A stretch of DNA of 32,000 nucleotides from an uncultured Candidatus Saccharibacteria bacterium (GTDB lineage Bacteria; Patescibacteriota; UBA1384; XYA2-FULL-43-10; 1-14-0-10-43-13): positions 96,715-128,714 of the forward strand of contig CAZIYE010000002.1 in the NCBI GenBank assembly GCA_964543385.1. The letters run 5' to 3'. This document shows positions 7,616 to 16,623 of this stretch, piece after piece; the stretch's first letter is position 1, and each line of letters starts with the position of its first letter. The position numbers and the translations under genes are program-made. The notes under the pieces were generated by a model that was not told where the DNA came from, searched no databases, and saw nothing but the letters and a program-made list of their open reading frames with translations.

Positions 7616-8740
7616 ATGAGCCACAATAATAAAGAGGCAGCGCTTGTCCTGGGGGGACTAGGCTTAATAGGTGGGTCACTAGCCCAAGAACTTACAAAGA
7701 ATTTTGACGTGTTTGTTGTGGACAGAAGAGAGCCTAAGGAAAAAAATGGAAGTGTGAAATATTATGTATCCGATGCGCTAAGTGTCTCAAGCCTTGAGAA
7801 GTTAATAATTGAACATGAGCCAAGACTAATCGTTAATTCAATAAATATAGCCACTATTTTTTCAGATAACCCTGAGGCAAACTATAAAAAGCTTGTTAAG
7901 TTTTACTATAGTTTGTATCAGATATTTAGTAAGATCTCACATCCGATACATTTCATTCAGATGGGGACAACTGGTTCTGGTGGACTAGGCTTTGATATTC
8001 CTTTTACTCATGGGGACAGAATAGAAGATCTCCCGATCATAAACAAGGCTGCTTTTGCCGGTGTTTCGACGGCAATGCTGACCCTTATGTCCAGGTCTTT
8101 TGGCCATAGAGTAAAAGTGTCGGAAATTAAACCAGGCTTGTCAATTTTTCGAAAAGATATTGTTAAAGAAAAATTTGATGGCAGTAACCTTATCCTTATA
8201 GATGGTGGTGAAAGTGGTTTTTATACATACAATGAACTAGCGCTCCTCACATGTTATATGGGTTTTACAACAGTAGACACGATCATTGATAAAGTTATGA
8301 AAATTATTGGTGGCGATAAAAGCTTCCATAATCACTGTGTTTATGACACGATAGGCAGTCTCAATGGTGCTATTATTACGCAAAATCACCTAGACCATTG
8401 GCGTTTGGTTAAATATCTTAATATTATGAAAAGACTGTCTGGCAAAGACTATATAATAGCTACGGGCAAACTTGGCCCTCCAAGCATCACAAGAGACTTA
8501 ATTCTTACATACCTAAAAAAGGAAAATCCTGATGTCGACGAGGAATCTTTTGCTAAGAAAATCAAGGGTGATGCAAATATAGTCAATACAATAAAATTCA
8601 TCAAGAAGAATGATAAAACTCTTTATGAATATCTATTAACTGAATTGAATTACGAAAACTATCTCAAAGCTATATATACTAAAGATGAGCCGTGGGAAAA
8701 CGTTAAAGCTATGTTGGCTAGACAGAAACTGATAGTATAG
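7616..8740 (+). CDS. NAD(P)-binding Rossmann-fold protein, atypical (no clear SDR YxxxK seen)
   Basis: 374 aa. N-terminal ALVLGGLGLIGGSLAQEL (GxxGxxG) is followed by VVDRR at the end of beta-2. It is divergent from the ANL/ThiF operon with only about 24 bp between the start codons. Confidence 0.6.
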   Translation: MSHNNKEAALVLGGLGLIGGSLAQELTKNFDVFVVDRREPKEKNGSVKYYVSDALSVSSLEKLIIEHEPRLIVNSINIATIFSDNPEANYKKLVKFYYSLYQIFSKISHPIHFIQMGTTGSGGLGFDIPFTHGDRIEDLPIINKAAFAGVSTAMLTLMSRSFGHRVKVSEIKPGLSIFRKDIVKEKFDGSNLILIDGGESGFYTYNELALLTCYMGFTTVDTIIDKVMKIIGGDKSFHNHCVYDTIGSLNGAIITQNHLDHWRLVKYLNIMKRLSGKDYIIATGKLGPPSITRDLILTYLKKENPDVDEESFAKKIKGDANIVNTIKFIKKNDKTLYEYLLTELNYENYLKAIYTKDEPWENVKAMLARQKLIV

Positions 8741-8760
8741 ACTAATCCACAGTTTTTCTT

Positions 8761-8789
8761 TTGACAATCTATGTGATCGCAGCTAAACT
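8761..8789 (+). promoter_or_regulatory. Sigma70-like promoter TTGACA-N17-TAAACT inside a 410-nt non-coding gap
   Basis: ttgaca at 8761..8766, a 17-nt spacer and taaact at 8784..8789. It begins 20 nt after the stop of the upstream gene. Confidence 0.45.
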
Positions 8790-9035
8790 ATATCAGTTCG
8801 CCATACTCTTATAGTTTATAGCGGACCTAGCTAATCATGGTCGTGCATTTATCTTGCTAGAAAGTGATGTGGCAACATCACAATAATCAATCAATCCTCA
8901 AGGACTGATTTTTATTTTGGGCAGATTCCGGCTGCTCTTGCCAATCCAACCGTCTGGTTGTGTATTCCGGCAGAACATCACTGACTATTTTATTGCACGT
9001 ATTAGTCAACTAGATGTTAGCACTTTTCTATCCCT

Positions 9036-9150
9036 CCTGATCCACCCTGTTTGTAAAAAATGTGCAGATGGATCAGGATAGCGGTTTGTTCACTGTATAA
9101 CCGCTGATAACAAATCAGCGTGTTGACAAAAAATCACACGCTGATTTTTG
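9036..9150 (+). promoter_or_regulatory. Attenuator-like leader: three hairpins with mutually exclusive 2:3 pairing, ending in a terminator
   Basis: Hairpin 0 is cctgatcca (9036..9044) / tggatcagg (9069..9077). Segment 1 agcggtt (9080..9086) pairs with 2 aaccgct (9099..9105). Segment 2' cgctgat (9102..9108) pairs with 3 atcagcg (9114..9120). Segment 3 atcagcgtgt (9114..9123) pairs with 4 acacgctgat (9136..9145), followed by tttttgttt. Confidence 0.55.
9112..9150 (+). terminator. Strong rho-independent terminator immediately upstream of the 9152/9176 ORF
   Basis: 10-12 bp stem (a)atcagcgtgt / acacgctgat(t), a 12-nt loop and the T-run 9145..9149 followed by gttt. Confidence 0.7.
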
Positions 9151-9151
9151 T

Positions 9152-9751
9152 TTGATGTTTATGTATAATTTACTTATGAAAATTTTATCCAAAGAAAAAT
9201 CTCGGGAGATATTAATCAAATTATTATCACTTTTCCAATGCGATCAGTTTGAGAAGATGGATAAATATCTCAATTCAAAGCCATTCAGATTCTTCAAATT
9301 CTATGCAAGCAATTCTTGCGAGCTCCCATTTTTATTTTGGGATGAAAAAGAAGCCAAGAAGATATTTGATTCCGCGATTAGTATTAGTGGTGCGGTAAAG
9401 GATAGTGATGGTGGTGTATACGGTATTGGTAATTATGATTATTTAGATAAATTAGCAAACTTTTTGAAAACACAGGGCTTTGTAAATATATACGGCGCTG
9501 GTAATTGGGATCCCTTCGGCAATGTTGGTCACAGTGCCATTGGCCTAAATGTTAATGAAATTAGGGGTATTAGCAGACATAACTACGATGACATCTATTT
9601 CTTTGATGAAAATTTTACCTGGATGCTCGCATTTAATCATCATAGAAACGGATTTTTTGCCGGATCAAAAGAAATGATAGAAGATTTTTCATATTCAGTG
9701 CCCGAATTTCGCAAATACCTCAGAGAAGAATGCTCCTGCTGCGGGCTTTGA
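9152..9751 (+). CDS. Hypothetical protein ending in a Cys-rich tail ...FRKYLREECSCCGL
   Basis: 199-aa ORF with no recognisable domain. A more likely start is the ATG at 9176 (MKILSKEK...), 6 nt after tataat (9164..9169). Its last ~25 codons recur twice downstream as remnants. Confidence 0.6.
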   Translation: MMFMYNLLMKILSKEKSREILIKLLSLFQCDQFEKMDKYLNSKPFRFFKFYASNSCELPFLFWDEKEAKKIFDSAISISGAVKDSDGGVYGIGNYDYLDKLANFLKTQGFVNIYGAGNWDPFGNVGHSAIGLNVNEIRGISRHNYDDIYFFDENFTWMLAFNHHRNGFFAGSKEMIEDFSYSVPEFRKYLREECSCCGL

Positions 9752-9771
9752 CTTATCCGCTAAGTTGACAT

Positions 9772-9800
9772 TTGACACCCTTTAATTGCTTCTGTAGAAT
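9772..9800 (+). promoter_or_regulatory. Near-consensus sigma70 promoter TTGACA-N17-TAGAAT (left repeat copy)
   Basis: ttgaca at 9772..9777, a 17-nt spacer and tagaat at 9795..9800. A second overlapping ttgaca lies at 9765..9770. Confidence 0.6.
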
Positions 9801-9885
9801 TTATGCATGGATACGTTATGGACAAAATTTAGACCCAAACGCAAGTTGCGGGCTAAGTGTGTCTTTGAAGAACTCCAAATAGATA

Positions 9886-9908
9886 GGACCCCTCTGGGGC
9901 CCTTTTTT
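9886..9908 (+). terminator. Hairpin plus T6 inside the leader of the HD gene (left repeat copy)
   Basis: ggacccc tct ggggccc gives 4 GC pairs, one A-C mismatch and 2 further GC pairs, followed by tttttt (9903..9908). It lies about 80-100 nt downstream of the promoter and 45 nt upstream of the ATG. Confidence 0.5.
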
Positions 9909-9952
9909 GTATCCTGTACACTCACAATCTAACGAAAGGAGGACTCCGGAGA

Positions 9953-10153
9953 ATGGGAGCAATGTTGGTACACGTTTCTGCATTAGAATATCTCTCAGTG
10001 CTCGCTCTTCGGAGATTCTCCGAAGAAGACCTGCGAAGGATTCAAAAAGCAGAGGATTTCGCTACTGAGAAGTTGCAAGGCATATTGCGGCGTGATGGTG
10101 CCGCGGTCAATATTGCGAGATTTATCTATACTGCCTTTCAAAATTCGCTGTAA
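9953..10153 (+). pseudogene. Truncated 5' copy of the SpoT-like HD hydrolase gene (49 authentic codons + 17 unrelated codons)
   Basis: The first 146 nt are identical to 13741..13886 (MGAMLVHVSALEYLSVLALRRFSEEDLRRIQKAEDFATEKLQGILRRDG). The sequence diverges at 10099 and stops at 10153, before the HD motif. Confidence 0.8.
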
Positions 10154-10173
10154 ATGCCCTGACCCCCTATAGC

Positions 10174-10515
10174 CTAAGTGCTGTGGGGGGTCTTGATATT
10201 AGTTCTTTTAAAGCTGCCGCGGACAAGTTTAAAAGCCAAGCGTCCGTCCTTGTGCTGCATCGGTGTACCGATTAATTCTCCGCAATCACAAGTTAGATTT
10301 TTCAGGGTTGATTCGTCATGTTCATTGGAACTATTAAAACTATCGGATATTATCCGGTTTATATAACAACGTTTGAGCCAACCAGGACCATCTTTCTGGT
10401 ATAAAAATATCTTTTTTCCACATTTAGCGCACCTGACGCGGGTAATCTTAGCAGTGCCGCCTCTGGCAGCCAGATATTTATCTCTTTTGATTTTGAATTG
10501 GTGTGACTGTTCCAT
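10174..10515 (-). CDS. Hypothetical zinc-ribbon protein (CxxC ... CxC)
   Basis: 113 aa, basic. RVRCAKCGKK and LTCDCGEL form a putative 4-Cys knuckle pair. A GC-rich hairpin gaccccc (10161..10167) / gggggtc (10186..10192) spans its 3' end. Confidence 0.6.
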   Translation of the reverse strand: MEQSHQFKIKRDKYLAARGGTAKITRVRCAKCGKKIFLYQKDGPGWLKRCYINRIISDSFNSSNEHDESTLKNLTCDCGELIGTPMQHKDGRLAFKLVRGSFKRTNIKTPHST

Positions 10516-10569
10516 TATAAAAAATTATTCGAATCATTATTATATCAATAAAGATTTTTTTTCTCAATT

Positions 10570-10659
10570 ATGAGAGAGCAAGATGATTCAAAATTCTCAT
10601 ATTCAGTGCCTGAATATCGCAAATACCTCAAAGAAGAATGCTCCTGTTGTGGGCTTTAA
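10570..10659 (+). pseudogene. Diverged remnant of the ...CSCCGL gene tail (reads as a 29-codon mini-ORF)
   Basis: atg at 10570 gives MREQDDSKFSYSVPEYRKYLKEECSCCGL then taa. It is about 85% identical by eye at the nucleotide level to 9671..9751. Downstream, 10690..10715 also retains the tttgaca...aattgctt...tagaat promoter-like module. Confidence 0.55.
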
Positions 10660-10837
10660 ATTTTTTAGTTCTGCATTACAGTAAAGCCAATTTGACAAAA
10701 CAAATTGCTTAGAATATCATCATATGAAACAAGCTTTATAGAAAGAAAAATATCTCCCAGACAAGTAAAATGTTGTTAGGGGATCATCTTTTTATAGGAC
10801 AAAATATAGAATTTAAAATCCAAGCAAGAATCAAAAA

Positions 10838-12238
10838 ATGAATGCCAATAATCAAAGAGTTGCTATAGCTGGACTTGGACCTCATGCCAAACGTATCTAT
10901 ATTAGGGTTCTCGCAAATTATGAAATTCAACCAAAATTAGTAATAGATATACAGTCTTCTGAGGAAAGTGTTAGGAAATTTCTAAGAGAGCATAAAATCA
11001 AATGTGATCTATATTTTGTACCGGATAAAAACAAAGATCTTAGGCGTCTTTCCGGAGAAGACAAGAAAAATATTGCACGTCTCCTCAAAAAAAATAAAAT
11101 CAATAAAGCAATAATATCTACAGAACCAAAATCTCATGTCGCATATGCGGAATTTTTTTTGAAACAGAAGTTGCCAGTTCTAATGGATAAGCCAGTTACG
11201 GCCATAAAAAATGCATGTTTCGATGATCGCCTTGCCCAGCAAATCTATAAAGAATATAAGCATCTGAGAGATATGTCTATTCAAAATGATGTTCCTCTAG
11301 TAATCCAATCTCAGAGGAGATATCACGGTGGATATATCTTTATCAGGGAATTACTTAAAGATACCATATTAAAATATGGTATTCCGGTTACGCATATGGA
11401 TATTTATCATTGTGATGGTCAATGGAATATGCCAATAGAATACATTACTAGGGATAATCATCCTTTTAATTATGGGTATGGTAAGGTTTTACATAGTGGC
11501 TATCATTTTGTTGATTTCATGAGTTGGATAGTAGCTCTTAACAATTTATTACCAGACAAAAAGCCGGATTGTTTCGATGCTATTCACAAGACAGTTAAAC
11601 CTCAAGATCAACTCTTTCAACTTAATGAAAGCTATGAAAAACTTTTTGAAAAAGAGTTACCAGGATTGCCAGAGAAAGATTTTTCCAAAATGGGTGAACT
11701 AGATTCTTACTCATTTATGCAATTCAAAAGAGAGGGCAAAGTAGTCACTTCTGTAAATCTGAATATGTTGCACAGTGGATTTTCTCGACGGGCTAGTTCT
11801 GAATTGGCCAAGGATGTTTATAAAGGTAATGGCAGGGTAAGGCATGAGAGAATAAATATCCAGATTGGTCCGATACTCAATATACAAGTTCATAGTTATC
11901 AATCTTATGAAATCAAAGATAGCAGTTATTCAAAGAAAGAGATTGAACCTGGCGGTTTAGACCACTTCGATATTTATATATTCAGGAATTCTGGTATTAT
12001 CGGTGGCAAGTCGTTCGAAAAAATTCAGGTCTCCAACCGGAGCCGTATCAATAGGAGAACGCACATGGGCCATAATGAGGAAGCCAGGGAAAGGTGCACA
12101 AAAGATTGGTTACAAGGAAATGAGAGTGAGAATGATGTGTTAAAACACAAGCTCACTAATTTAGTTATGTCTACCCTATATCGCTGTTCTGCCAAGGAAA
12201 ATTTAGGCAGATTCCCATATATGGAAGTTAAACTGTAG
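10838..12238 (+). CDS. Gfo/Idh/MocA-like oxidoreductase-fold protein
   Basis: 466 aa. N-terminal RVAIAGLGPHAKRIY (Rossmann GxGxxA-type), then AIISTEPKSHVAYAEFFLKQKLPVLMDKPV (the ..TP...H......AL..GKHVL.EKP pattern). HSGYHFVDFMSWI lies in the C-terminal domain. No SD is visible. Confidence 0.6.
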   Translation: MNANNQRVAIAGLGPHAKRIYIRVLANYEIQPKLVIDIQSSEESVRKFLREHKIKCDLYFVPDKNKDLRRLSGEDKKNIARLLKKNKINKAIISTEPKSHVAYAEFFLKQKLPVLMDKPVTAIKNACFDDRLAQQIYKEYKHLRDMSIQNDVPLVIQSQRRYHGGYIFIRELLKDTILKYGIPVTHMDIYHCDGQWNMPIEYITRDNHPFNYGYGKVLHSGYHFVDFMSWIVALNNLLPDKKPDCFDAIHKTVKPQDQLFQLNESYEKLFEKELPGLPEKDFSKMGELDSYSFMQFKREGKVVTSVNLNMLHSGFSRRASSELAKDVYKGNGRVRHERINIQIGPILNIQVHSYQSYEIKDSSYSKKEIEPGGLDHFDIYIFRNSGIIGGKSFEKIQVSNRSRINRRTHMGHNEEARERCTKDWLQGNESENDVLKHKLTNLVMSTLYRCSAKENLGRFPYMEVKL

Positions 12239-12276
12239 TTTGACAATCAAATCCAAGTACGAGGGGGAGCTGAAAG

Positions 12277-12969
12277 ATGCCGGTTACTGTGGCGTTTGAC
12301 GGTTTGAATCGATGCGGTAAAGGCACCCAGGCAGCATTGCTGCAGTCTCGCCTTCGCGAGATGGATGTTTTTTCCGTGATCATCAGAGGCGACGGTTCGA
12401 GGGATGGCTTGGGATTGACACCAGGTGATCCAGAAGACCTCTGGTGGCAAGGCTTCAAAAGCTGTCTAAAGGGCAGCGAAGGGACAACGCGCTGGTTCGA
12501 TAAATGGAATGAAGCAGCGTGTCGCTTAGCGCATGAATTAATTTGCTGGCAGGGAATAACATTCCCTCAAATGCTGAAAGATTCAGGGCGTAAAAGCGGA
12601 GTCTTACTTATCGATCGGAGCATTATTTCCAGAATTATGGTTATGCGGCAAGCCGGAGAGTATAACGGTTTAAACAGCCTGTATACTGTCGGAGGCGAGC
12701 CACAAGACATTGACTGGGAAGAGGTGCTACCCACAGTGCTGTTCAATTTCCATGTGCCCCAAGAGGTACTTCTGGCACGGTTGGATCATGATGATCCAAA
12801 GTATCAGTTCCGAAAGGGCATTATCGAACAGCATTTCCAACTCCATGTCTCTGTTTCTAGGGAGCTGCCAGAAGAAATTTTAGGCAGAACAATCCCTTTG
12901 AACGGCGACAATGAGCTTGAGGTTATCCACGAAGAAATATCTGCGGTAGTGGAACCTCTATTGCATTAG
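12277..12969 (+). CDS. P-loop kinase, thymidylate-kinase-like (divergent)
   Basis: 230 aa. VAFDGLNRCGKGTQAALL is a Walker A motif in the dTMP-kinase context (.EG.DG.GKsTq). LLIDRSIISR resembles the DRY/DR motif. It is visibly GC-richer (first 60 nt are 55% GC) than both neighbours, and its SD GGGGGAG is unlike the local style. Confidence 0.6.
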   Translation: MPVTVAFDGLNRCGKGTQAALLQSRLREMDVFSVIIRGDGSRDGLGLTPGDPEDLWWQGFKSCLKGSEGTTRWFDKWNEAACRLAHELICWQGITFPQMLKDSGRKSGVLLIDRSIISRIMVMRQAGEYNGLNSLYTVGGEPQDIDWEEVLPTVLFNFHVPQEVLLARLDHDDPKYQFRKGIIEQHFQLHVSVSRELPEEILGRTIPLNGDNELEVIHEEISAVVEPLLH

Positions 12970-12979
12970 TGCGGGCAGA

Positions 12980-13002
12980 GTGTGGGGCAGGACGCCCCAC
13001 AC
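12980..13002 (+). other. GC-rich 9-bp hairpin between the kinase and Nudix genes
   Basis: gtgtggggc (12980..12988) / gccccacac (12994..13002) with loop aggac. No clean T-run follows, so it is not a classical terminator. Confidence 0.5.
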
Positions 13003-13032
13003 CATAATTTGAAAAAGTAATAAAAGGAGTAT

Positions 13033-13461
13033 ATGAGGCACAGTTTTGATTCAGTGAATGTCAGTACAATAATTTTTAATAGAAAAGGACAGGTTCTTTT
13101 GGGAAAAAGAAGTATGGACGAGGATGTATATCCCGGACTTTGGTGTGTGCCTGGAGGCAAGATAGATGTGGAAGCCTGTGAAGGTGAAATTATCGAGAAC
13201 AATTTAAAAAGAGAGGTGAAGGAAGAGATAGGGATAGAGATAGAACCTCTCTTTTATCTTGCTAGCAATTGTCTTATAAAAGGAGACGAGGCAAAATTAT
13301 ATCTGATGTTTGTATCAGAGCATGTTGCCGGTGAGCCATTTGCACTTGACGGTACCGAAGAAGTTAAATGGTTTGAAATCGATGAACTAACACCAGAAAT
13401 GCTAACGCCTAAAACCTATGACAATATTCAAAAAGCGAGTGACAAAAGAATATCTCTCTAA
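13033..13461 (+). CDS. NUDIX hydrolase
   Basis: 142 aa. GGKIDVEACEGEIIENNLKREVKEEIGI contains the REVKEEIGI core of the Nudix box, with a longer than usual loop. The SD AAGGAG lies 5 nt upstream. Confidence 0.8.
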   Translation: MRHSFDSVNVSTIIFNRKGQVLLGKRSMDEDVYPGLWCVPGGKIDVEACEGEIIENNLKREVKEEIGIEIEPLFYLASNCLIKGDEAKLYLMFVSEHVAGEPFALDGTEEVKWFEIDELTPEMLTPKTYDNIQKASDKRISL

Positions 13462-13539
13462 AAATATCTAGACAATTTCGAAATCTTAATTTATTTCCGC
13501 AAATATCTCAGAGAAAAATGCTCCTGCTGCGGGCTTTGA
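13462..13539 (+). pseudogene. Remnant of the ...CSCCGL gene tail, in frame with the Nudix ORF after its single TAA
   Basis: Codons after the Nudix stop read KYLDNFEILIYFRKYLREKCSCCGL then tga, with no start codon of their own. The last 7 codons lie inside the perfect repeat. Confidence 0.6.
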
Positions 13540-13559
13540 CTTATCCGCTAAGTTGACAT

Positions 13560-13588
13560 TTGACACCCTTTAATTGCTTCTGTAGAAT
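13560..13588 (+). promoter_or_regulatory. Near-consensus sigma70 promoter TTGACA-N17-TAGAAT (right repeat copy), driving the intact HD gene
   Basis: Same sequence as 9772..9800, shifted by 3788. Confidence 0.6.
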
Positions 13589-13673
13589 TTATGCATGGAT
13601 ACGTTATGGACAAAATTTAGACCCAAACGCAAGTTGCGGGCTAAGTGTGTCTTTGAAGAACTCCAAATAGATA

Positions 13674-13696
13674 GGACCCCTCTGGGGCCCTTTTTT
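13674..13696 (+). terminator. Hairpin plus T6 in the HD gene leader (right repeat copy)
   Basis: Same sequence as 9886..9908. It could also serve as the terminator of the Nudix gene. Confidence 0.5.
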
Positions 13697-13740
13697 GTAT
13701 CCTGTACACTCACAATCTAACGAAAGGAGGACTCCGGAGA

Positions 13741-14376
13741 ATGGGAGCAATGTTGGTACACGTTTCTGCATTAGAATATCTCTCAGTGCTCGCTCTTCGG
13801 AGATTCTCCGAAGAAGACCTGCGAAGGATTCAAAAAGCAGAGGATTTCGCTACTGAGAAGTTGCAAGGCATATTGCGGCGTGATGGCACACCAGCCATTG
13901 AGCACTCAAGAGCACTTGCACTCAAAGCATGCGAGCTAAAACTGTCAGCAAACGCTATAGCGATTGCCTGGTTGCACGATGTGTTGGAGGACAACCTCAA
14001 TGTCACATCGTGGGACCTGTACTGTTTGTTTGGAGTCGTCCATGGGGCGATCATCACCAACGGCGTAATAGCCTTGACACAATGCGACTGGATGTCTGAC
14101 GAAGTGTACTTCAATAGGATCGAAGTTGCATCCTCAGTCAACTGGGAGATTGTAGTCGTCAAATTAATTGATCGCTGGCATTTCCATTCGGACTTTTACA
14201 ACGGTCCGGAGAAGAAAGAGCTAGCCAAGATTGACCAGACACAGAAGATCTTCCAGCAGACTATCAGAAACTGTGAAGTATTAGTTCCGGAAGATTTCCG
14301 GTCGACATACAATCAGTTGCTGGATGAAGTACTGGAGCTTGCAGAAATCCGGCAAGCTGAACTAATGGCCGCATAG
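13741..14376 (+). CDS. Small alarmone hydrolase-like HD-domain protein (RelA/SpoT hydrolase family)
   Basis: 211 aa. RRDGTPAIEHSRALA...AIAIAWLHDVLEDN...LFG...GVIALTQ and later VVKLIDRWHFH parallel the SpoT/Mesh1 hydrolase pattern (R.sGePy..Hp..VA....AALLHDv.EDT...FG...V.GVtKL...KLADRLHN). GC-richer than the surrounding housekeeping genes. Confidence 0.7.
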   Translation: MGAMLVHVSALEYLSVLALRRFSEEDLRRIQKAEDFATEKLQGILRRDGTPAIEHSRALALKACELKLSANAIAIAWLHDVLEDNLNVTSWDLYCLFGVVHGAIITNGVIALTQCDWMSDEVYFNRIEVASSVNWEIVVVKLIDRWHFHSDFYNGPEKKELAKIDQTQKIFQQTIRNCEVLVPEDFRSTYNQLLDEVLELAEIRQAELMAA

Positions 14377-14451
14377 GCTCTGTCCACGATGGACCGAGCC
14401 TATTGCATTTTTATATTAGAAAAATTAATCAAGTTATGCTATAAAAATAAT

Positions 14452-16623
14452 ATGAAAGAAATTGCAAAAGCCTACGACCATCAACAATTTGAAGAACCCA
14501 TCTATAAGCACTGGGAAGACTCTGGTTATTTTAAGCCTGAAATAAATATGGGCAAAAAGCCAGAATATGACAGAGAAATTGACGGTAAGCCTTTTGTTAT
14601 CTCTATGCCACCGCCGAATGTAACAGGTAAGTTACATGTTGGCCACTCGTTGTTTATTACATTGCAAGATATAATGATCCGATATCATCGCTTGAAAGGC
14701 GAACCAACTCTTTGGCTGCCAGGAACAGATCATGCAGGTATTGCCACTCAAACTGTAGTCGATAAAATGCTTAAGAAACAAGGAATCGACAAGCGAGAGC
14801 TTGGCCGTGAAAAATTCATTGAAGAAGTGTGGAAATGGAAAGAAGAGTACGGAGGTACTATTACTAGACAACTCCGTCGTATGGGCGCTTCTTGTGACTG
14901 GTCAAGAGAGAGATTTACGCTTGATGAAGGCCTTAGTTTCGCTGTTCGTAAAGCCTTTGTTGATCTCTATAAAAAAGAGCTGATATATCAGGGGCTTAGA
15001 GTTGTGAACTGGTGTCCTCGTTGTCGTACAGCTATTGCTGATGATGAAGTCGAATATCAAGAACAGAAATCAAAATTATATTGGATCAAATATGGTCCCT
15101 TTGTATTGGCGACTACTCGTCCTGAAACTAAATTAGGTGATACTGCAGTTGCGGTCAATCCAAAAGATAAAAGATACCTTGATATGGTTGGCAAAAAGTA
15201 TATGATTCCGGGAGTTTTAGGTGAATTTGAGGTCATAGTGGTTGCTGACAATGCGGTTGATCCCGCGTTTGGTAGTGGTGCGGTAAAAGTCACTCCCGCA
15301 CATAGCTTCGCGGACTACGAAATTGCTCAACGTCATAACCTTTCAATGAAGCAGATAATCGATGAAAATGGTCGTATGATGGCTAATACTGGTAAATATG
15401 CCGGAATGAAGACCTCTGAGGCCAGAGAAGCCATAGTGGCGGACATGGACAAGCTGGGATTAATTGATCATGTAGACGAATATGATAACAGTCTTCCGAC
15501 TTGCTATCGTTGTGGAGGAACTATCGAGCCGATTCCATCGAAGCAATGGTTTGTTAAGATGAAAGATCTTGCCAATAGGGCAAAGAAAGTTGTTGAAGAT
15601 GGAAAAATGGATATAATTCCTGATCGTTTCAAAAAGTTGTATATCCAATGGATGGAAAATATTCGCGACTGGTGCGTGTCTCGTCAAATTTGGTGGGGTC
15701 ATCAGATCCCAGTTTGGTATAGGGGTGATGAGATCTATTGCGGCATGGAAGCTCCCGATGGTAAGGATTGGAAACAGGATCAAGATGTGCTCGATACTTG
15801 GTTTTCCTCTGCCTTGTGGCCTTTTTCAACCCTTGGTTGGCCAGGGGAGACAAAGGACTACAACTATTTTTATTCCACAACAGTAATGGAAACTGGTTAT
15901 GATATTTTGCCTTTCTGGGTAGCTAGAATGGCTACTTTTGGTCTCGAATTTACCGGCAAGGTACCTTTTGAAACTGTTTATTTTCACGGCCTAGTTCGCG
16001 ATGAAAAGAATAGGAAAATGAGCAAATCTCTTGGCAATGTTTTAGACCCTCTCGATATTATTCCAAAATATGGCACGGATGCTCTTAGGATGGCGCTTGT
16101 AGTCGGTTCAGCTCCTGGTCAAGATTTAGCAGTAGGGGAGTCAAAGATTAAGGGCTATCGTAATTTCTCTAATAAAATATGGAACGCTTCCCGGTTTGTT
16201 CTGCTGCAAGTTTCAAATGGGGATTTAAGAACCGGTGAAATTGGTGCAGCAAGGTTAGATAGTTTAGACATAAACAAAGCAACTCTAACTAATCAAGACA
16301 AAGCTATACTAAAGGATTTAGAAAATGTTAAAAAGTCCGTCACGGAGAAATTAGACAAGTTCAGATTCTCTCAAGCAGGAGAGGAATTGTATGAATTTTT
16401 CTGGCATACATTTTGTGACATCTATATAGAAAAAGCAAAAGAACAAATTGCAGATGAGAAGTTCAAGGATAATACTAAAAAAATATTGATAAAAATCCTC
16501 TCTGAATCCCTAATCCTTCTTCATCCTTTTGTGCCTTTCGTCACTGAGGCTGTATGGCAGGAGCTTCGGAAGGTATATCCAGATCTCTCCAAATCCATCA
16601 TGATTTCAAGATGGCCTCTATAA
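14452..16623 (+). CDS. valS: Valyl-tRNA synthetase
   Basis: PPPNVTGKLHVGHSL (HIGH motif), GTDHAGIATQ, the WCPRCRTAI editing-domain zinc motif and KMSKSLGNV (KMSKS). I use the ATG at 14452 (MKEIAKAYDHQQFE...), not the track's upstream extension from 14389. Confidence 0.95.
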   Translation: MKEIAKAYDHQQFEEPIYKHWEDSGYFKPEINMGKKPEYDREIDGKPFVISMPPPNVTGKLHVGHSLFITLQDIMIRYHRLKGEPTLWLPGTDHAGIATQTVVDKMLKKQGIDKRELGREKFIEEVWKWKEEYGGTITRQLRRMGASCDWSRERFTLDEGLSFAVRKAFVDLYKKELIYQGLRVVNWCPRCRTAIADDEVEYQEQKSKLYWIKYGPFVLATTRPETKLGDTAVAVNPKDKRYLDMVGKKYMIPGVLGEFEVIVVADNAVDPAFGSGAVKVTPAHSFADYEIAQRHNLSMKQIIDENGRMMANTGKYAGMKTSEAREAIVADMDKLGLIDHVDEYDNSLPTCYRCGGTIEPIPSKQWFVKMKDLANRAKKVVEDGKMDIIPDRFKKLYIQWMENIRDWCVSRQIWWGHQIPVWYRGDEIYCGMEAPDGKDWKQDQDVLDTWFSSALWPFSTLGWPGETKDYNYFYSTTVMETGYDILPFWVARMATFGLEFTGKVPFETVYFHGLVRDEKNRKMSKSLGNVLDPLDIIPKYGTDALRMALVVGSAPGQDLAVGESKIKGYRNFSNKIWNASRFVLLQVSNGDLRTGEIGAARLDSLDINKATLTNQDKAILKDLENVKKSVTEKLDKFRFSQAGEELYEFFWHTFCDIYIEKAKEQIADEKFKDNTKKILIKILSESLILLHPFVPFVTEAVWQELRKVYPDLSKSIMISRWPL

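Follow-up and report, generated by a model that had tools for sequence, protein, structure and literature searches.

Three same-strand gene tails in an accessory island of a Candidatus Saccharibacteria genome as possible scars of homologous and illegitimate recombination

Introduction

A pattern of scars left by sequential displacement has been described for the effector-immunity clusters of the Vibrio cholerae type VI secretion system (T6SS) and for Rhs orphans (Kirchberger et al. 2017, PMC5361080), and homology-facilitated illegitimate recombination is on record for transformable bacteria (de Vries and Wackernagel 2002; Prudhomme et al. 2002; Meier and Wackernagel 2003, as cited in PMC5361080). 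Here these systems are compared with a locus of an uncultured Candidatus Saccharibacteria bacterium, located in a stretch of 32,000 nucleotides (nt) of contig CAZIYE010000002.1 (the window; positions are those of the window unless a contig or locus is named). At this locus the 3' end of a gene encoding a 199-amino-acid (aa) protein, referred to as gene a, occurs three times in the same orientation (tails 1 to 3) within an accessory island, and two of the three copies belong to a 389-nt direct repeat, R, of which they form the left edge and which also holds the leader and first codons of a gene for a SpoT-like HD hydrolase (the HD gene). The reading that we favour, with conviction and doubt in equal measure, is that the tails are scars of repeated homologous and illegitimate recombination in the island, to which a recent recombinant duplication was added.

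The stretch belongs to a 902,808-base genome in four contigs, 98.7% complete and ~38% G+C (38–40% for the contigs overall). Comparisons were made with a genome of the same genus (G001, locus L033), the sole other genome of the genus searched, and with a related strain, here called strain S (SRR32414321, loci L015 and L061). Two unitigs built independently from public sequencing runs (L016 and L034) and a database copy of the 199-aa protein (P0001) were also used.

Three tails and a 389-nt repeat

The initial annotation had reported that the tail of the 199-aa protein, whose C-terminus ends ...FRKYLREECSCCGL, recurs twice on the same strand, and three tails were indeed confirmed, at 9686–9751, 10594–10662 and 13498–13539. 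DNA and protein searches of the whole 0.9-Mb genome recovered these three and no further copy, and a degenerate tail pattern gave 0 matches in a metagenome-contig and a genome-contig collection. The tails do not represent three free-standing tail-promoter modules, as had been proposed: tails 1 and 3 are the left edge of R, a single recent duplication whose copies lie 3788 nt apart and bracket a 3.4-kb block. The copies of R differ only at 9718/13506 and 9728/13516, after which 370 bases are identical; the perfect core reaches 146 nt (49 residues) into the HD gene, and similarity is lost abruptly after the motif GATGG. The left shoulder of R, with 2 mismatches in 19 nt (~10%), is about as diverged as tail 1 is from tail 2, and by our own arithmetic the chance that both of two random differences in 389 sites would fall within the first 19 is ~0.002. 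A ~10% diverged left edge ahead of a perfect core is what an exchange point within diverged tails would produce.

The joints at 10098|10099 and 13497|13498 display no or minimal homology, at most 4 nt (ATTT) in the case of 13497|13498. Unitig L016 stops at 9758 and unitig L034 spans 10069–13546, the ends at 9758 and 13546 each being exactly 30 nt beyond the final base that tells the copies of R apart, so that R and the two novel junctions are represented in unitigs from 4–5 sequencing runs.

Over 69 nt (10594–10662), tail 2 shares 88% identity with tail 1, a divergence of ~12%. Across the 21 codons common to both, four differences are synonymous and two conservative, and the stop codon has changed from TGA to TAA. 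Since the substitutions in the retained codons are mostly synonymous, tails 1 and 2 diverged while still coding, in agreement with what had been proposed for them. It had also been suggested that tail 2 acquired its own ATG and reads as a 29-codon open reading frame (ORF). The ORF is present; its start derives from a frameshifted remnant, as a 1-nt deletion near 10592 shifts the former ...EMIED codons out of frame, so that the mini-ORF begins with eight codons that are not ancestral coding sequence. The sequence before its ATG contains no Shine-Dalgarno motif or other recognizable ribosome-binding site, and the divergent Zn-ribbon gene has its promoter-like site immediately next to it.

The truncation points of the tails within the gene differ, with the homology of tail 2 beginning at ~10581 and that of tail 3 at 13498, and alignment of the copies therefore did not yield the common recombination boundary that had been anticipated. 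Homology extending further upstream of tails 2 and 3 was considered and rejected, as 49/500 and 425/500 shuffles, respectively, reach the scores. Tail 3 stands in the frame of the Nudix ORF behind a single TAA, as had been noticed at the outset; the Nudix protein is of normal length, and this placement is best read as a one-in-three coincidence.

Tail 2 is followed by an intergenic region, i2, that is 73% identical to the DNA following the gene-a orthologue of strain S (L015), which is intact, 77% identical and followed by TruD, a gene with no homologue in this genome. The same region thus precedes TruD in strain S and the gene for a 466-aa protein here, and to judge from its sequence it would drive both; the order gene a, tail, i2 appears to be the shared, older arrangement. 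The claim that tail 2 is followed by a diverged version of the promoter found after tails 1 and 3 did not hold up: common ancestry of the two promoters is unproven, as 142/1000 shuffles reach the score. The features of the locus are listed in Table 1.

Table 1. Positions of the features at the island and its borders
Feature	Position in window	Strand	Remarks
Conserved non-coding leader, ~410 nt	about 8741–9153	+	left anchor; 81% nt identity to G001 (L033:3337–3748); homology ends ~9153, just before first island gene
Gene a, intact	9152..9751	+	199-aa ORF; probable start ATG 9176, giving 191 aa
Tail 1	9686–9751	+	functional 3' end of gene a
Repeat R, copy 1	9710..10098	+	tail, HD 5' leader, HD codons 1–49; perfect core 9729–10098
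Promoter-like site TTGACA-17-TAGAAT	9772..9800	+	recurs at 13560–13588
Leaderless small ORF, 41 codons	9807..9932	+	runs through hairpin 9885–9903 and T-run 9903–9908; recurs at 13595–13720
Truncated HD copy	9953..10153	+	66-aa ORF; first 49 residues those of HD protein; illegitimate junction 10098|10099
GC-rich hairpin	10161..10192		between HD fragment and convergent Zn-ribbon gene
Zn-ribbon protein, 113 aa	10174..10515	-	promoter-like site 10567–10539
Tail 2	10581..10662	+	old remnant of second gene-a copy; contains 29-codon ORF 10570–10659
Intergenic region i2	10663..10770 (~110 nt)	+	promoter-like site 10692–10720
Cargo operon	10838..13461	+	466-aa GFO/IDH/MocA-like oxidoreductase, 230-aa dTMP-kinase-like P-loop protein, 142-aa Nudix
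Unique spacer, 36 nt	13462..13497	+	Nudix stop to tail 3; junction 13497|13498
Tail 3	13498..13539	+	last 14 codons of gene-a copy; non-coding here; carries both repeat mismatches
Repeat R, copy 2	13498..13886	+	same contents as copy 1; intact HD gene continues beyond
SpoT-like HD hydrolase, intact, 211 aa	13741..14376	+	with leader and ValRS (14389–16623) forms conserved right flank

Conserved anchors and variable contents

The two relatives define what is constant at this locus. G001 keeps the genes for the 527-aa (89% aa identity) and 374-aa (86%) proteins, the 410-nt leader and the valyl-tRNA synthetase gene ValRS (85–88%), while its 410-nt leader stands before a homologue of 2-thiouracil desulfurase, where our genome has the 199-aa gene; a search of 21 other genomes of the family did not recover this leader. 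The G001 island continues with a Zn-ribbon homologue (63% identical and in the opposite orientation), DUF1846, a thymidylate-kinase-like gene, two ASCH genes, an unmatched 364-aa ORF and a HAD-like gene before the HD gene, and only the Zn-ribbon protein, among its island proteins tested, has a homologue in our genome. The HD gene of G001 is broken by a 100-N scaffold gap (L033:9588–9687) and hence only looks like a fragment. In strain S (L061), a divergent guanylate kinase gene is followed by the HD leader, the HD gene (83%), ValRS (86%) and the next genes (92–100%). Since G001 and strain S keep HD leader, HD gene and ValRS with different upstream genes, these three constitute a conserved right flank.

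Homology of the strain S leader starts exactly at the position of the tail stop codon of this genome, and a search for a tail remnant upstream of it was fruitless, nothing tail-like being present there; the junction of tail and leader is therefore lineage-specific and derived. Conserved anchors are thus present on both sides of the island (the 374-aa gene and 410-nt leader on the left, HD leader, HD gene and ValRS on the right), and the joints between them have either no homology or only microhomology. The locus is a genuine turnover hotspot between conserved anchors. Of the serial insertion hotspot put forward in the initial annotation, turnover is upheld by the differing contents of G001 and strain S, but the tail and its promoter are not a defined insertion site, as the cut points differ.

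Proposed history of the island

The observations above have brought us to a scheme in which DNA of relatives would have joined the island repeatedly, with homologous exchange at a conserved stretch making one of the two joins and an illegitimate joint the other. In every event the body of the resident 199-aa gene would have been replaced, while its last codons stayed beside a promoter needed by the downstream genes. Tail 2 and i2 would represent the oldest type of arrangement (gene a, tail, i2, as in strain S) with the gene body replaced, and tail 3 would be the residue of placing the cargo operon ahead of a junction between the gene-a tail and the HD leader. The most economical order of events that we infer may have had three steps: (i) gene a was brought immediately ahead of the HD leader; (ii) incoming DNA with another copy of gene a, i2 and the cargo joined, the resident body being replaced up to the last 14 codons, which would be tail 3, and the incoming gene-a copy was itself later whittled down to tail 2 beside the Zn-ribbon gene; and (iii) a recent exchange with a haplotype that retained gene a, tail, leader and HD gene produced the duplication, with an illegitimate joint in HD codon 49 (10098|10099). 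R would accordingly be the product of recombination between two haplotypes, a short one (gene a, tail, leader, HD) and a longer counterpart (Zn-ribbon gene, tail 2, i2, cargo, tail 3, leader, HD), for which a single exchange within the region common to both, together with the one illegitimate joint, would suffice. Two routes could lead to the same product in step (iii), namely a left-anchored homology-facilitated illegitimate event or the single-crossover integration of a circularised fragment.

The enzymes of site-specific mobility are scarce. Genes for an integrase, a transposase or other mobile elements were not found in the 32-kb window, nor, as the initial annotation had stated, was a recombinase or attC-like site, and the single tyrosine recombinase of the genome (PF00589) lies on contig C1, outside the window. 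Neither a transposase nor terminal inverted repeats of a transposon or insertion sequence were found at the locus, and the unit boundaries contain no recurrent inverted repeats. A site-specific mechanism is disfavoured because the tails are cut at different points. RecA is clearly present in the genome.

Several points weigh against recurrent recombination of this kind. A ComEC domain match is present, but the extended frame has two in-frame stops, and natural transformation in this organism is a route that we infer. Neither the short nor the long donor haplotype was found in any collection searched, which makes the donors hypothetical. More than one order of events is possible, no fewer than three or four junctions call for an explanation, and the scheme accounts neither for the origin of the 75 nt that follow the HD fragment nor for the inverted Zn-ribbon gene. 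Finally, zero differences in 370 nt also fit intragenomic gene conversion.

If the scheme of serial recombination is correct, the locus offers a concrete, dated case of a 0.9-Mb genome with almost no mobile-element enzymes swapping accessory operons at a fixed position, and the leftover gene tails form a stratigraphy of past events. A far more general idea, which we regard as a long shot, is that conserved gene-end-plus-promoter stretches and leaders serve as reusable homology anchors, so that a few fixed loci would act as recombinase-free cassette platforms, with scars recording the order of acquisition, in recombinase-poor, probably transformable ultra-small bacteria.

Alternative explanations

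The duplication might instead be old, with tail, leader and the 5' end of the HD gene kept identical by intragenomic gene conversion in a tract that stops short of the left 19 nt. This is unlikely, although the contrast between the perfect 370-nt core and its ~10% diverged shoulder, the presence of RecA and the direct orientation of two copies only 3.8 kb apart speak for conversion. Against it, the leader and HD fragment of copy 1 have no evident selectable function and direct repeats of this size delete easily, and a conversion tract whose end coincides exactly with the right limit of homology could not be distinguished from a recent event.

A rather poor prospect is given to the view that three intact 199-aa paralogues once stood in tandem, each before its own genes, and that two of them decayed. 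The common orientation of all tails and the divergence of tails 1 and 2 under coding constraint would both follow from such an array, but no pseudogene body remains, tail 2 directly adjoins a putatively working promoter, that of the Zn-ribbon gene, and 36 nt separate tail 3 from the Nudix stop upstream of it. The initial annotation had held that plain decay would be indicated by a tail that occurs nowhere else together with tandem intact paralogues in relatives. The tail was indeed absent from the rest of the genome and from the two collections, but tandem paralogues were not found, none of the relatives examined having more than one copy of the 199-aa gene.

Third, and quite improbable, the succession of repeat, insert and repeat could be an artefact of assembly or of a mixed population, in which the chromosome has one copy of R, the 3.8-kb unit being an excised circle or part of a co-occurring strain. 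The unitigs do break at R, leaving a graph that fits both topologies, and a 370-nt direct repeat can recombine out; on the other side, the unit holds no replication gene, the four-contig assembly runs through it and both junctions recur in 4–5 runs.

The original proposal that the tail and promoter are the dedicated recombination site of a cassette-capture platform is very improbable, since three copies in one orientation, with a promoter and different genes behind each, and an i2 region that would drive different genes in two strains, are set against differing cut points, the lack of inverted-repeat sites and of a nearby recombinase, and the absence of the module elsewhere in the genome and in two large collections. 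The tail with its promoter is a scar and a patch of homology, not a dedicated insertion site.

The HD leader

The ~150-nt leader that R carries 5' of the HD gene is conserved beyond this genome. Its layout, consisting of a promoter, a mini-ORF, a GC hairpin with T-run, a ribosome-binding site and the HD gene, is present in seven of nine HD genes (strain S, G001, G010, G008, G022, G015 and this genome; leader positions 9772–9952 and 13560–13740 in the window, L061:1343–1545, L033:9230–9408 and L021, minus strand, 2190–2360). The promoter is near-consensus, the ATG follows the -10 box by 6–9 nt and the small ORF is basic. In six relatives the leader ORF has 23–35 codons and its stop ends 12–19 nt before the T-run, while the ORF of this genome, with 41 codons, reads through the hairpin owing to a 1-nt deletion with respect to strain S. 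The remaining two genes depart from this layout: in G003 a promoter and small ORF are present with irregular geometry, and no promoter was detected for the HD gene of G019. Between strain S and this genome the leader is 86% identical at the nucleotide level, compared with 75–81% for the HD gene itself, and the changes in the leader peptide are conservative or synonymous.

Attenuators of the pyrBI-leader type have a small ORF that stops at or in a terminator upstream of the gene and is conserved in relatives, and such a layout is found in the HD leaders, which makes the leader of several genera a candidate translation-coupled transcription attenuator. An Rfam scan of 8700–14500 found no RNA family, and a terminator match in G130 was rejected as an unrelated, generic terminator. 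R duplicates a conserved leaderless mini-ORF and terminator leader of SpoT-like HD genes that may be a regulatory device in bacteria of the Candidate Phyla Radiation (CPR). The perfect 370-nt repeat, moreover, breaks short-read assemblies and creates a truncated HD hydrolase copy that is still equipped with a promoter. The exact HD protein is not on record in the collections searched, where contigs break inside the HD gene.

The 199-aa protein

The start of gene a is probably ATG 9176, which matches P0001. The family of its product is sporadic within the class, with 23–29% identical homologues in four other genomes, and the Cys-rich tail is restricted to three close sequences; no close relatives of the protein were found in the metagenome-contig or genome-contig collection. 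DUF6756 is matched weakly, below the cut-off, by four of seven family members, a weak indication that the protein, whose Cys-rich C-terminus is disordered, is distantly related to DUF6756. The AlphaFold model (pLDDT 77, pTM 0.79) has a disordered tail and gave no Foldseek match in the PDB (best E-value 0.075), and a profile search of PDB sequences returned nothing. The likeness to a toxin/immunity locus that had been suggested found no echo: profile and structure searches with the 199-aa protein detected no immunity family, in sequence or fold, no toxin gene occurs at the locus and none was found among the neighbours of the distant homologues. An immunity role for the protein is unsupported.

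The cargo operon and other features

The cargo trio recurs in other CPR contigs, with 72–80% aa identity for the 466-aa protein. Its gene order is the same in a Parcubacteria genome and a Logan contig (76–80% for the 466-aa protein; relatives of the trio at L067:5519–8972 and L068:6001–8629), and the trio is rearranged in a Saccharibacteria genome of another family. In Logan contig L067 it sits beside phage portal and capsid genes. At the nucleotide level, similarity to L067 (72%) begins 3 nt ahead of the first ATG and extends as far as the Nudix stop, and the limits of the cargo are thus those of its ORFs. Many relatives encode a fusion of oxidoreductase and Nudix (~650 aa), and Zn-ribbon homologues often adjoin the trio in other CPR contigs. 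These distributions point to a portable operon moving among CPR lineages. A PADLOC search matched the Nudix protein to the candidate PDC-S07 and gave nothing for the other five of the six island proteins.

The kinase-like and HD genes (window 12000–13000 and 13600–14400) have 46–49% G+C, compared with 32–38% for the neighbouring genes in the profile, which suggests a foreign origin or different constraints. With respect to repeats, R ranks second in size in a self-comparison of the genome; the largest, outside the window, consists of two adjacent 729-nt copies that are 96.7% identical (C1:186519–187247 and 187331–188059). A perfect 91-nt direct repeat also lies near the start of the window, at 521–611 and 717–807, with a spacing of 196 nt (C2:97235–97325 and 97431–97521).

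Comparison with known systems

Integron arrays resemble this locus in having serial same-orientation units at one site, but here IntI, attI and attC are missing, and the units have their own promoters and differing cut points. Integration by a Campbell-type single crossover would likewise bracket an insert with direct repeats of the shared homology, and the variant bases of R do sit in the copy that a crossover to their right predicts, while no circular donor, replicon or integrase is known here.

Arrays of T6SS, Rhs and contact-dependent inhibition (CDI) genes differ in content: this locus has no toxin, immunity gene or secretion system; their toxins have a conserved body and a variable C-terminal tip, whereas the piece repeated here is a conserved tail; and their orphans are followed by immunity genes, whereas those described here are followed by oxidoreductase, kinase-like, Nudix and HD hydrolase genes, a cargo of nucleotide-metabolism type. 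In architecture they are alike, with an intact gene upstream and displaced same-orientation 3' fragments downstream, each accompanied by its former neighbours, and in both cases one homologous anchor and one illegitimate joint have been proposed, with no need for a dedicated recombinase.

Homology-facilitated illegitimate recombination, as represented in the studies cited above, was followed in experiments in which a 389-nt duplication does not appear to be a usual product, whereas its operation here is read from scars. The features it shares with this locus are one-sided homology, homology-free joints and foreign DNA caught beside a conserved anchor; the genome encodes RecA and has the ComEC domain match mentioned above. 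The three tails lie far beyond chance, and what they record is an ordinary kind of genome mosaicism in an unusual organism.

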